Assembly (NCBI RefSeq): GCF_003991155.1 | Contig: NZ_CP031293.1 | Origin: Escherichia coli | GTDB lineage: Bacteria; Pseudomonadota; Gammaproteobacteria; Enterobacterales; Enterobacteriaceae | DNA: 64,000 nt | Reading direction: 5' to 3' (one strand) | In this document: piece after piece, positions 26,589 to 27,652 of the stretch | How the letters are laid out: every line of letters starts with the position of its first letter | Position numbering within the stretch: the stretch's first letter is position 1 | Notes under the pieces: model-generated | What the model was told of the DNA's origin: nothing | Databases searched by the model: none | The model's input: only the letters and a program-made list of their open reading frames with translations | Position numbers and translations under genes: made by a program

Positions 26589-27485
26589 TTATACAAAAAG
26601 TGACAAAAAAGATCGGGTTTGATCACAGTCGGGGATCCCGGCTCGTCCACCGGGACGCGTGCATTTTAACGCCGCCACACCGCTGGCGAAGCGGACTGAC
26701 CCCGCTAAATCCCCACCTGTGGCCAGCGCCACCGCCAAAGCGCCGTGAAAAACATCACCCGCTCCTGTGGTATCTACCACATCAACTTTGAAGGCCGGTT
26801 GATGTTGACGCCCGCCATTTTCCAGCCAGTCGCAGCCTGCGCTGCCCTGGGTCACATAGACATGACCATTTGTGAGCGTTTGTGCCTGTTTTAGCGCACT
26901 GGCCATCTCTTTCACCCCCGTTAAGCGCGCCAGACCCGGTTCTGAAAAGGCCGCATGATCGCTTAATGCCACCAGCTCACTGATATCCTGCGGCGTAATG
27001 TCCCCGTCCAAAACAGTCATCACGCCCGCCTGCCGGGCCAGGGTGAAAGCTTTTTTAGCACCTTCGTGCCAGCGTACATCCGCCAGCACAACATCCCACT
27101 GAGAGAAATCAATTTCCTCCAACCACTCTGCGTCAGGCAGCAAGTCCGGGCTGGGGTAGTTAATGATTATCCGCTCGCCTTTGGTATCCACCATGATGGC
27201 GGATTGCGAAGATTTCGCCTCGTTATACCGTTTGGTATAACGGGTGTTAACGCCCCAGGACTCCAGCTCTGCCAGCAGGCTGTTGCCTGTGTCGTCGTCA
27301 CCGACGCGACCAATAAAATCGACCTGCGCACCTAGTCTGGCCGCCGCAACTGCTGCTGTAGCCGCTGGCCCGCCGCCAACTTCCGTATAATTTTTCGCCA
27401 CGTATTTACCGCTCTCCGTCGGCAATCCTTCCACGTAATAGATGCGATCCATCACGGTAATTCCTACACAAGCAACACGAATCAT
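26589..27485 (-). CDS. yihV: Sulfofructose kinase (PfkB family)
   Basis: PfkB signatures (GGGPAATAA, DTTGAGD); 298 aa from internal ATG. Confidence 0.88.
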   Translation of the reverse strand: MIRVACVGITVMDRIYYVEGLPTESGKYVAKNYTEVGGGPAATAAVAAARLGAQVDFIGRVGDDDTGNSLLAELESWGVNTRYTKRYNEAKSSQSAIMVDTKGERIIINYPSPDLLPDAEWLEEIDFSQWDVVLADVRWHEGAKKAFTLARQAGVMTVLDGDITPQDISELVALSDHAAFSEPGLARLTGVKEMASALKQAQTLTNGHVYVTQGSAGCDWLENGGRQHQPAFKVDVVDTTGAGDVFHGALAVALATGGDLAGSVRFASGVAALKCTRPGGRAGIPDCDQTRSFLSLFV

Positions 27486-27652
27486 GGTCATTCCTTAAGC
27501 ATTTTGGGATGCGTTCATTTTAATTTCACCAATTGTTTAAAAAGTGACGGCTGTCAATTTTTTGACGATAAATTACAAATACGATCAAAAACAGACAAGC
27601 AAGGCATGTCATAAATGACAAAAAGTGACATTACTGTATTCAGGAGAGGGTT

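Follow-up and report, generated by a model that had tools for sequence, protein, structure and literature searches.

Conserved half-sites in the control regions of the sulfoquinovose (yih) genes of Escherichia coli: candidate CsqR operators and a predicted CRP site

A nine-base word, AAAAGTGAC, occurs exactly three times in a 64,000-nucleotide stretch of Escherichia coli DNA (hereafter, the window), and all three copies lie inside the two control regions of the yih genes to which published work assigns binding of the repressor CsqR (YihW). We propose, with a probability of roughly 0.55, that the three words are short regulatory half-sites in the form that they take in E. coli, such that copies 1 and 3 would belong to CsqR, copy 2 would be of the CRP type, and the array of CsqR half-sites would mediate repression. 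The assignment of proteins to half-sites and the mechanism of repression are what we infer from directly observed sequences, conservation, spacing and geometry; additional support comes from the literature, namely CsqR and CRP binding at the level of DNA fragments, the position of a ChIP-exo peak, and Dam protection.

A 2019 study by Shimada et al. (Microbiology 165:78) is said to describe the control of yihUTS/yihV/csqR by CsqR (YihW) in E. coli K-12. Published work already covers the regulator, its two target regions, its inducer and a role of CRP, and the present result is a modest refinement. The locus, the regulator and the two DNA regions considered here are the same as in the published work on this system (also Kaznadzey et al. 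2018, PMC5816610; PMC8464067; PMC12608037), in which CRP binds both regions too, whereas the WGACA half-site, the 10-bp direct repeat and the degenerate copy over yihU -10/+1 are proposed here.

Genomic positions (x) were converted to window coordinates as w = 4101224 - x, with an offset of +1977; the YihW ChIP-exo peak, at 4071641-4071681 of NC_000913.2 (PMC8464067 supplementary file 5), was transferred with a precision of +/- 2 bp. The comparison of orthologous regions covered about 55 Enterobacterales, and the counts for individual elements refer to 50 to 55 sequences or lineages. The features are collected in Table 1.

Table 1. Genes, promoter elements and half-sites of the yih control regions, in window coordinates.
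Feature	Position	Strand	Remarks
csqR (yihW), DeoR-family repressor gene	25770..26555	-	ATG at 26555; from ORF list, RefSeq annotation of identical DNA and alignment to K-12
csqR promoter -10, TATAAA	26588..26593	-	conserved in 49/55; fits published TSS at -27/-28
yihV (sulfofructose kinase)	26589..27485	-	K-12 start 27485, stop 26589-91; csqR promoter in last ~17 codons
Copy 1 (w1), ACAAAAAGTGACA	26593..26605	+	TGACA core 26601-05; ~-11 to -23 of mapped csqR start (26582/3), directly upstream of -10
CRP-type half-site upstream of csqR, TGTGATCAAACCCGAT	26612..26627	-	TGATCACA invariant in 54/55 orthologues
yihV promoter -10, TAAAAT	27517..27522	-	conserved in 50/53; fits published major TSS at -25/-27 (27510-12)
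Copy 2 (a), AAAAAGTGACG, left palindrome half	27539..27549	+	exact in 40/53; GTGA[CT] in 52/53
CRP/FNR-type palindrome, 22 bp, AAAAGTGACGGCTGTCAATTTT	27540..27561		centre 27550.5; no indels across orthologues
b, AAAAATTGACA, inverted partner of copy 2	27552..27562	-	exact in 42/53; variant TAGACA also seen
YihW ChIP-exo peak, transferred	27566..27606		41 bp; between copies 2 and 3
Central invariant block, ATAAATTACAAATACGATCAAAAACAGACA	27568..27597	+	97% mean identity, 50 orthologues; within ChIP-exo peak
yihU -10, TACGAT	27580-85	+	conserved in 50/53
GATC, the sole one of the spacer	27583-86		in central block
Degenerate copy (d), TCAAAAACAGACA	27585-97	+	core 27593-97; over yihU -10/+1, inside ChIP-exo peak
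TGTCAT, left arm of inverted pair	27607..27612	+	E. coli-specific, 2/53; in 27598-27610 spacer (27% identical)
f, ATAAATGACA, direct repeat member 1	27611..27620	+	core 27616-20; A[AT]TGACA in most orthologues
Copy 3 (g), ACAAAAAGTGACA, direct repeat member 2	27618..27630	+	core 27626-30, +36 to +40 of yihU start; [TA]GACA conserved
yihU (sulfolactaldehyde reductase)	27653..28549	+	heads co-directional run yihUTSRQPO-ompL; from ORF list and RefSeq annotation

Results

A repeated word in two control regions

The three exact matches to AAAAGTGAC are all on the plus strand (26596-26604, 27540-27548 and 27621-27629). Dinucleotide shuffles yielded 0.49 matches on average, and three were reached in 1 of 100 shuffles, which bears out the recurrence described in the initial annotation of this DNA; by sequence count, the 10-mer AAAAAGTGAC lies at 26595-26604, 27539-27548 and 27620-27629, so that one of the coordinate pairs given there is exact and the other two are off by one. 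Copies 1 and 3 share an identical extended 13-mer, ACAAAAAGTGACA, which is the best word common to the two published electrophoretic mobility shift assay (EMSA) fragments; an exact 13-mer arose in 0 of 60 shuffles. With up to three mismatches, this 13-mer has 25 matches in 64 kb. The control DNA, 212 bp in all, holds five of them, against an expectation of 0.07 (Poisson P ~1e-8), and the 167-bp yihU/yihV spacer contains six TGAC/GTCA cores against 1.2 expected (P = 0.002).

Such recurrence might simply reflect chance or base composition, that is, A-rich promoter DNA with UP-element-like A-tracts and -35-like TTGACA strings that share no binding protein. The spacer is indeed AT-rich, its TTGACA-like strings look like -35 hexamers, there is no window-wide enrichment of the degenerate pattern AAANWGACA (7 found vs 5.25 expected), and the signal of periodicity is weak. 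We nevertheless consider this explanation highly improbable, given the exact 13-mer in two functionally linked regions, the clustering of near matches, the conservation far above that of synonymous sites, and the 10-bp pair spacing that is kept across unconserved flanks and rebuilt on the other strand (see below). The TTGACA-like cores were also rejected as -35 hexamers in their own right, there being no -10 at the correct distance.

Conservation of the (T/A)GACA core

The yihU/yihV intergenic core has 92% identity among the approximately 55 Enterobacterales orthologues, compared with 51% at the synonymous sites of yihV; mean identity is 0.93 in a/b, 0.97 in the central block, 0.77 in f/g and 0.27 in the 13-bp spacer at 27598-27610. 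The region is a clean instance of regulatory DNA that is more tightly constrained than the genes on either side. These data largely refute an origin of the recurrence by chance.

Judged from the alignments, the unit under selection is the (T/A)GACA core, usually with a preceding A-tract, rather than the 9-mer AAAAGTGAC. The initial annotation, which treated the longer word as the recurrent motif and held that a lack of conservation in orthologous intergenic regions would speak against an operator, is thus upheld with respect to the core, which is conserved, and not to the full word, which is found at copy 3 in only 6 of 53 distinct orthologous sequences. In 13 divergent lineages, AGTGAC is the most enriched hexamer (z=17), and TGACA and GATCA are the top pentamers other than Shine-Dalgarno sequences. 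Relative to the yihU -10, WGACA cores occupy +13, +36 and +46 in most lineages; a distance of 10 bp separates the last two in 43 of 51, despite the unconserved DNA between d and f. In Yersinia, the f/g pair is displaced by 8 bp with its 10-bp spacing retained. The Nissle-type cassette has the pair re-formed on the other strand, as TGTCA-N5-TGTCA, and keeps AGTGAT...TGTC elements as well; the counterparts of the pair are TTACA-N5-TTACA in the K. pneumoniae type and the palindrome AAATGACA-N7-TGTCATTT in Chimaeribacter. Autocorrelation of the wider region at a lag of 9-10 is weak (z ~2). On that ground, we discarded a model in which tandem units follow one another every 10 bp across the central block (TGAC 27563, TTAC 27573, GATC 27583, AGAC 27593).

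The recognition helix of CsqR, VSTQTVRRDI, is invariant among the orthologues compared. The single lineage that lacks csqR (L015) has intact f/g and a/b, but not d, and its loss of csqR may be recent. Conservation of this kind demonstrates function rather than the identity of the bound protein because the orthologues are phylogenetically non-independent and promoter elements overlap the half-sites.

Copy 2 and a palindrome shared by two divergent promoters

Copy 2 is the stronger half of a palindrome, AAAAGTGAC-N4-GTCAATTTT. The palindrome agrees with the CRP consensus TGTGA-N6-TCACA at 13 of 16 informative positions and, with a score of 17/23, is among the top ~10 of 64,000 window positions, whereas copies 1 and 3, taken as full CRP sites, score 12/23 and come about 1,000th among window positions. 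From the centre of the palindrome, the distance to the yihU -10 is 29.5 bp and that to the yihV -10 is 28.5 bp. Relative to the published or inferred yihU and yihV starts, the centre is at -39.5 to -41.5, depending on which published start is chosen. A scan for sigma-70 -35/-10 pairs found no pair, and no usable -35, at yihUp and yihVp.

Class II CRP-dependent promoters have a site centred near -41.5 and a weak -35. Because copy 2 belongs to a top-10 match to the CRP consensus located at about -40 from both divergent starts, we predict that the palindrome is probably a class II activator site of the CRP/FNR type common to yihUp and yihVp. The palindrome, AAAAGTGA-N6-TCAATTTT, resembles such promoters in its match at 13/16 positions, in its position near -41.5 and in the lack of a -35 at either yih promoter. 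It differs from them in its weak right half (TCAAT), which is of the FNR kind (TTGA), and in its invariant flanking C and G (GTGAC...GTCA), which CRP does not need and which match the regional TGACA half-sites. CRP binds the yihU/yihV fragment in EMSA, and expression of yihV is CRP-dependent, as found with a crp mutant (PMC5816610); the yih genes are not listed in the Crp ChIP-exo supplements. An FNR site (TTGAT-N4-ATCAA) was considered separately for GTCAA-TTTT-TTGAC (27553-66) and dismissed, the half-sites being in the wrong order; the a/b palindrome itself is CRP/FNR-like.

In an alternative reading, all three copies of AAAAGTGAC, including the palindrome at 27540-61, are CsqR operators and CRP acts elsewhere or only indirectly; a large CsqR oligomer would span the distance from copy 2 to copy 3, and the central ChIP-exo peak would be its merged centre. 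Several observations fit: the midpoint of copies 2 and 3 (27584) matches the centre of the peak (27586), half-site b shares the pattern of an A-tract followed by TGACA with f, g and w1, both halves in one lineage (L048) are ATTGAC and thus less CRP-like, and CsqR forms large cooperative complexes on the yihU/V fragment (PMC8006165; PMC10991401). However, a/b has the geometry and the consensus match of a class II CRP site, CRP binding and dependence are published for this very fragment, the csqR-less lineage retains a/b fully but not d, and the ChIP-exo borders fall inside, not outside, copies 2 and 3, all of which makes this arrangement unlikely in our view.

Copy 1 and the csqR promoter

Copy 1 had been annotated as upstream of yihW, which is correct, but it sits within the coding sequence of yihV, the gap between yihV and csqR being only 33 bp. 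It falls in the spacer of the csqR promoter, with the -10 on one side and the -35 on the other, in the yihV codons ..S-F-L-S-L-F-V-stop. TGACA is present here in 49 of 55 orthologues and the exact 9-mer in 35 of 55; the copy is absent in Yersinia and Hafnia, and Dongshaea has AAACTGACAAAAA. Both the csqR transcription start and a CRP site for yihWp, at -41.5, have been published (PMC5816610); by the present count, the centre of the CRP-type site at csqRp is at about -37.

The third positions of synonymous yihV codons are more conserved at the end of the gene (0.76 in codons 282-298 vs 0.49 in codons 1-281), where the last 17 codons lack the codon-wobble pattern. The final 51 nt of yihV are 89% identical in the 52 lineages with csqR downstream, compared with 63% in the sole csqR-less lineage, where copy 1 has decayed. 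Copy 1 is most likely an autoregulatory half-site of CsqR, a candidate whose conservation is partly confounded by coding. As a matter of gene arrangement, the csqR promoter and the candidate operator lie within the 3'-terminal codons of the gene before csqR. A 19-nt similarity between 26652-70 and 27506-24 shows no conservation beyond codon wobble and is probably due to chance.

CsqR occupancy, the central block and the yihU leader

CsqR binds the yihU/V and csqR-upstream fragments in published EMSA (PMC12608037, with data of its own and a citation of Shimada 2019), genomic SELEX identified the yihU/yihV spacer as a CsqR target (PMC8249747), and ChIP-exo of YihW gave a peak in the same spacer with a signal-to-noise ratio of 168 (PMC8464067, Gao et al. 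2021; the YihW pattern is shown in Supplementary Figure 4 of that paper). Binding is strong at the spacer and weaker upstream of csqR, and sulfoquinovose releases CsqR. By the primer sequences given in PMC5816610, the EMSA fragments span 27418-27752 and 26497-26802. The suggestion of the initial annotation that the word is a candidate CsqR operator is supported in part. It agrees with mapped binding at the level of fragments, which contain all three copies, and is strengthened by the conserved core and by AGTGAC as the top hexamer, but copy 2 has a strong competing reading as a CRP-type site, and the ChIP-exo peak, the sole in vivo signal at base resolution, excludes every exact copy: 18 bp separate the peak from copy 2 and 15 bp from copy 3, and only the degenerate copy d lies inside it. 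The motif is absent from the weak secondary YihW peaks (glpA, ssuE, yhcC, yafO), which therefore offer no cross-validation on other targets. Neither the motif string nor the term 'CsqR box' gave a relevant hit in a text search of the literature. The accessible papers describe CsqR binding at the level of fragments or peaks and define no such box.

There is another explanation, in which the CsqR operator is the central block alone (27566-27606), with a different recognition sequence, and the AAAAGTGAC/TGACA words are CRP-type half-sites, sites of some other winged-helix regulator that binds direct repeats, or promoter architecture. The block contains both the ChIP-exo peak and the GATC for which Dam protection has been published (non-methylated in Salmonella, variably methylated in E. 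coli; PMC7708049, PMC5155068); it is the most conserved stretch (0.97), and it is kept in the Nissle-type spacer, which is without AAAAGTGAC and yet is bound equally well by K-12 CsqR (PMC12608037). In addition, AAAAGTGA is similar to the CRP half-site AAATGTGA. On the other hand, CsqR also binds the yihV/W fragment, and the only strong words that it has in common with yihU/V are the motif family that includes d; the f/g direct repeats, ATGACA in most orthologues, are poor for CRP, as are copies 1 and 3 by their rank as full CRP sites; and the Nissle-type spacer retains both TGTCA-N5-TGTCA and AGTGAT...TGTC. We regard a confinement of the operator to the central block as rather improbable.

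The yihU leader carries the direct repeat WGACA-N5-WGACA formed by f and g, at +26 to +40 of the yihU start. The initial annotation had pointed to a different element here, an inverted TGTCAT/ATGACA pair within GGCATGTCATAAATGACAAAAAGTGACA. The string is present at 27603-27630 and the pair, TGTCAT(27607-12)-AA-ATGACA(27615-20), is real, but it is not conserved, and it was rejected as an operator palindrome because the left arm is kept in just 2 of 53 sequences. Direct repeats of TGTCA can in principle be bound by winged-helix domains. Seen from the minus strand, f/g (TGTCAC-TTTT-TGTCAT) repeats TGTCA in direct orientation, as do the Pho box and OmpR-family sites (CTGTCAT-N4-CTGTCAT, 11-bp period); an assignment to this type was set aside since the period is 10 rather than 11, the repeat is downstream of the start instead of replacing a -35, and there is no link to phosphate control.

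Discussion

The reading that we favor can be summarized as follows. Copies 1 and 3 would be half-sites for the DeoR-type repressor CsqR, copy 3 as the downstream member of the WGACA-N5-WGACA repeat, one helical turn from its partner in the yihU leader, with the degenerate copy d lying over yihU -10/+1, the site of the strongest in vivo CsqR signal. CsqR, a highly cooperative binder of these fragments, would occupy the half-site array, occluding RNA polymerase at yihUp and csqRp and probably interfering with activation at yihVp. Sulfoquinovose would free the array from CsqR, and the copy 2 palindrome would serve CRP activation of yihUp and yihVp.

Tandem or multiple operators are familiar among DeoR-family repressors, for instance, GlpR at glpD/glpTQ-glpACB, DeoR with looping between O1/O2/OE, AgaR and UlaR. 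CsqR would share with such repressors an oligomeric winged helix-turn-helix architecture, several operators spread over ~100 bp of a divergent or core promoter region, cooperativity, a sugar-derived inducer and autoregulation (PMC10991401). Unlike the operators of DeoR (TGTTAGAA) and GlpR (WATGTTCGWT), those of the CsqR region would be of the TGACA type, and the orientation of the half-sites is apparently flexible (direct, inverted or strand-swapped, depending on the lineage).

A more far-reaching scheme, which we offer as tentative, is that CsqR recognizes a minimal 5-bp (T/A)GACA half-site in flexible orientation and polymerizes over the ultraconserved divergent promoter of ~115 bp, that CsqR and CRP share the -41.5 palindrome and compete there for one half-site, and that the autoregulatory operator constrains the last codons of yihV. 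If the reading of CsqR with such a minimal half-site is true, it would be, as far as the accessible literature shows, the first site-level operator model for this regulator. What is gained is a testable, base-level model of the positions of CsqR and CRP. Such a model would be useful for engineering sulfoquinovose-responsive promoters, and it would help to account for the lack of induction of the Nissle-type 'short cassette' by sulfoquinovose and to interpret the protection of the yihU GATC from Dam in Salmonella and E. coli.

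The repeated word in the yih control regions

The window is E. coli DNA: several RefSeq strains match it at 100% identity and K-12 at ~99% in the yih locus, where the yihV-csqR intergenic gap measures 33 bp. The interval between fdhE and fabY (window ~18800-22400; L065 5429-8971) contains, in this strain, vapC/copG-type toxin-antitoxin genes as well as a transposase and an adjacent truncated gene.

The initial annotation reported a recurrent word in the yih control regions, and this recurrence is confirmed: AAAAGTGAC occurs exactly three times in the 64 kb, compared with a mean of 0.49 copies in shuffled sequence (three were reached in 1/100 shuffles). 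The 10-mer positions first listed are real, with two coordinate pairs off by one. Copies 1 and 3 share an extended form, the identical 13-mer ACAAAAAGTGACA, and 5 of its 25 window-wide matches (<=3 mismatches) fall within 212 bp, where 0.07 are expected. Published EMSA primers were placed on the window, delimiting a yihU/V fragment (27418-27752) and a yihV/W fragment (26497-26802). The 13-mer family provided the top hits in an unbiased search for words common to these two CsqR-binding fragments, and an exact 13-mer was shared between them in 0/60 shuffles.

Features of the yih control regions and their conservation (window coordinates)
Feature	Position	Strand	Remark
csqR/yihW	25770-26555	-	sulfoquinovose (yih) cluster
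yihV	26589-27485	-	sulfoquinovose (yih) cluster
yihU	27653-28549	+	followed by yihT-S-R-Q-P-O-ompL, same direction
Copy 1	26596-26604	+	
Copy 2	27540-27548	+	
Copy 3	27621-27629	+	
13-mer match, <=3 mismatches	27537		copy 2
13-mer match, <=3 mismatches	27552	-	AAAAATTGACA, inverted partner of copy 2
13-mer match, <=3 mismatches	27585		TCAAAAACAGACA, degenerate copy d
Spacer core (82 bp)	27516-27597		mean identity to window 0.92, about 50 Enterobacterales species
Central block	27568-27597		mean identity to window 0.97 across orthologues
13-bp stretch	27598-27610		mean identity to window 0.27 across orthologues
yihV synonymous third positions			mean identity to window 0.51 across orthologues

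Conservation among orthologous loci

Scanning one genome per species yielded 59 loci with the yihU<->yihV-csqR arrangement, among them loci from Escherichia, Citrobacter, Salmonella, Enterobacter, Rahnella, Yersinia, Hafnia, Buttiauxella and Chimaeribacter, to which the E. coli 'short cassette' (Nissle type), Dongshaea marina and a K. pneumoniae-type locus were added. The K-12-type locus (>=90% identity) occurs in 4025 complete E. coli genomes out of 5426 and the short cassette, a ~65% identical version, in 1227. This cassette comprises genes for a kinase, a reductase, an aldolase, an alcohol dehydrogenase and an MFS transporter, and has its own control-region variant (L064 3744-3914, E. coli DE17).

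Given the identities of its core and of yihV synonymous sites, the yihU/V spacer is more tightly constrained than its neighbouring genes, and the motif region is thus conserved in orthologous intergenic regions. The conserved unit is narrower than the 9-mer. Copy 2 is exact in 40/53 distinct sequences and its partner TGTCAATTTTT in 42/53; copy 3 is conserved only as [TA]GACA (AAAAATGACA 16 times, CGATGTGACA 7 times, the E. coli word 6 times). Copy 1 retains TGACA in 49/55 orthologues and the exact word in 35/55; it is absent in Yersinia and Hafnia, and its Dongshaea version is AAACTGACAAAAA. The TGTCAT/ATGACA inverted pair noted beside copy 3 is not conserved, the TGTCAT arm surviving in 2/53. 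Across 13 divergent lineages, AGTGAC is the top enriched hexamer (z = 17), and among pentamers only the Shine-Dalgarno sequence is more enriched than TGACA and GATCA.

Copy 2 as a probable CRP-type site

Copy 2 probably has a further identity, beyond the repeated word. AAAAGTGAC-GGCT-GTCAATTTT forms a palindrome centred at 27550.5 that matches the CRP 22-mer at 13/16 positions outside the central six and ranks among the ~10 best of 64,000 window positions by a simple weighted CRP-consensus score; scored as complete CRP sites, copies 1 and 3 come no higher than about 1,000th. From this centre, the distance to the -10 is 29.5 bp for yihU (27580) and 28.5 bp for yihV (TAAAAT, 27522->27517), so that the palindrome sits at about -40 to -41.5 from both divergent starts, which have been published as -62/-63 for yihU and -25/-27 for yihV (PMC5816610). 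The promoter scan found no -35 element at either promoter, and Kaznadzey et al. showed that CRP binds the yihU/V fragment and that yihV expression is CRP-dependent (PMC5816610). The simplest reading is one class II CRP-type site common to two divergent promoters. Its invariant C...G flanks (GTGAC...GTCA) and its right half, of TTGACA type, are likewise compatible with the TGACA family, so that CsqR may compete at this palindrome (a/b). The top CRP-consensus match of the whole window (21.5 of 23) is ACCTGTGATATTTGTCACATTT, at 13024-13045, at the fdhD start in the fdhD-fdoG divergent region.

The central block and the f/g pair

Gao et al. reported YihW ChIP-exo reads on NC_000913.2 with one dominant site at 4071641-4071681 (S/N 168; PMC8464067). 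We transferred this site, to within +/- 2 bp, by window alignment and a +1977 offset based on yihV, which starts at 4073739 in version.3, and on the yihV start at 4071737, equal to -25, in version.2; glpA coordinates served as a consistency check. The site falls at 27566-27606, between copies 2 and 3, and covers the invariant block ATAAATTACAAATACGATCAAAAACAGACA, which contains the yihU -10/+1 and degenerate copy d. The sole GATC of the spacer (27583) lies within the yihU -10. This GATC is reported to be Dam-protected (non-methylated) in Salmonella, at yihU -66, and to be one of the variably methylated GATCs in E. coli ZK126 (PMC7708049, PMC5155068), reports consistent with stable occupancy of the central block. 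K-12 CsqR shows equal binding to its own yihU/V fragment and to the Nissle-type one (PMC12608037); the Nissle-type spacer lacks AAAAGTGAC, yet retains the central block and TGTCA repeats. No TGACA-type motif was found in the weak secondary YihW ChIP-exo peaks (S/N 4-14; L069-L072, K-12 glpA, ssuE, yhcC, yafO), which include the glpA start and a site upstream of the sulfonate gene ssuE.

In most lineages, WGACA cores stand at +13, +36 and +46 from the yihU -10 (TACGAT, conserved in 50/53). The stretch separating the first two is unconserved, and the last two, the direct repeat f/g that ends in copy 3, keep a 10-bp spacing in 43/51 lineages. The pair behaves like a unit: in Yersinia it has moved by 8 bp with its spacing intact, it has been rebuilt on the other strand in the Nissle-type cassette (TGTCA-N5-TGTCA), and in Chimaeribacter it takes the form of a palindrome, AAATGACA-N7-TGTCATTT. 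The K. pneumoniae type has TTACA-N5-TTACA, together with a regulator that carries R46Y and HH57-58QR; elsewhere VSTQTVRRDI, the recognition helix of CsqR, is invariant. Judged by sequence comparison, this pattern of change is that of transcription-factor half-sites, unlike that of chance words or promoter hexamers.

Copy 1 and the csqR promoter

Copy 1 does lie upstream of yihW, as first described, but inside the last yihV codons (..SFLSLFV-stop), because the gap is so short. Read on the csqR strand, the sequence here is CCCGATCTTTTTTGTCACTTTTTGTATAAAATGCCA, and its -10, TATAAA (26593->26588), agrees with the published start at -27/-28 (PMC5816610), so that the motif spans about -11 to -23. 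A wobble pattern is absent from the last 17 yihV codons, whose synonymous identity is 0.76 versus 0.49 in the remaining gene. This 51-nt stretch has 89% identity in the 52 lineages that have csqR downstream and 63% in the single csqR-less lineage, where A-tracts, the otherwise invariant TGATCACA and the csqR promoter elements are lost. Taken together, these comparisons indicate that the extra constraint is regulatory and tied to csqR. That lineage (L015; 2250-2510, 3300-3520), a metagenome-assembled Enterobacteriaceae genome with yihV, and missing both yihU and csqR, keeps a/b and f/g in its spacer; its d is degenerate, CAAAAACAACAC, and its -10, TATGAT, is closer to consensus.

The CRP site of the csqR promoter, TGTGATCAAACCCGAT (26612-26627), was published at -41.5 (PMC5816610); its centre, 26619.5, is by our count about -37 from the published start (26582/3), and the TGATCACA within it is invariant in 54/55 orthologues. 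Three GATCs cluster just upstream of csqR (26611, 26621 and 26634), the first two 10 bp apart. GGGACGCGTGCATTTTAAC (26652-26670, yihV coding sequence) and GGGATGCGTTCATTTTAAT (27506-27524, yihV promoter -10/start) are alike at 16/19 positions, probably by chance, orthologues of GGGACGCGTGCATTTTAAC showing only codon-wobble conservation.

A candidate CsqR half-site array

The proposal that the repeated word is a CsqR operator is partly supported, for a system that was already known; our contribution is a site-level hypothesis on it. No CsqR box is given in the literature surveyed, which did not extend to Shimada 2019, and we infer the assignment of protein to half-sites. CsqR, a winged-HTH protein of the DeoR type, assembles into large cooperative complexes on yih control DNA (PMC8006165, PMC10991401). 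We propose that it would occupy an array of WGACA-type half-sites comprising d, which overlies the yihU -10/+1, the direct repeat f/g, located in the yihU leader, and w1, the 13-mer version of copy 1 in the csqR promoter spacer, with a/b as a possible further member. CsqR on this array would block RNA polymerase, and perhaps CRP too; sulfoquinovose releases CsqR, and CRP at the common -41.5 site would then activate both divergent promoters.
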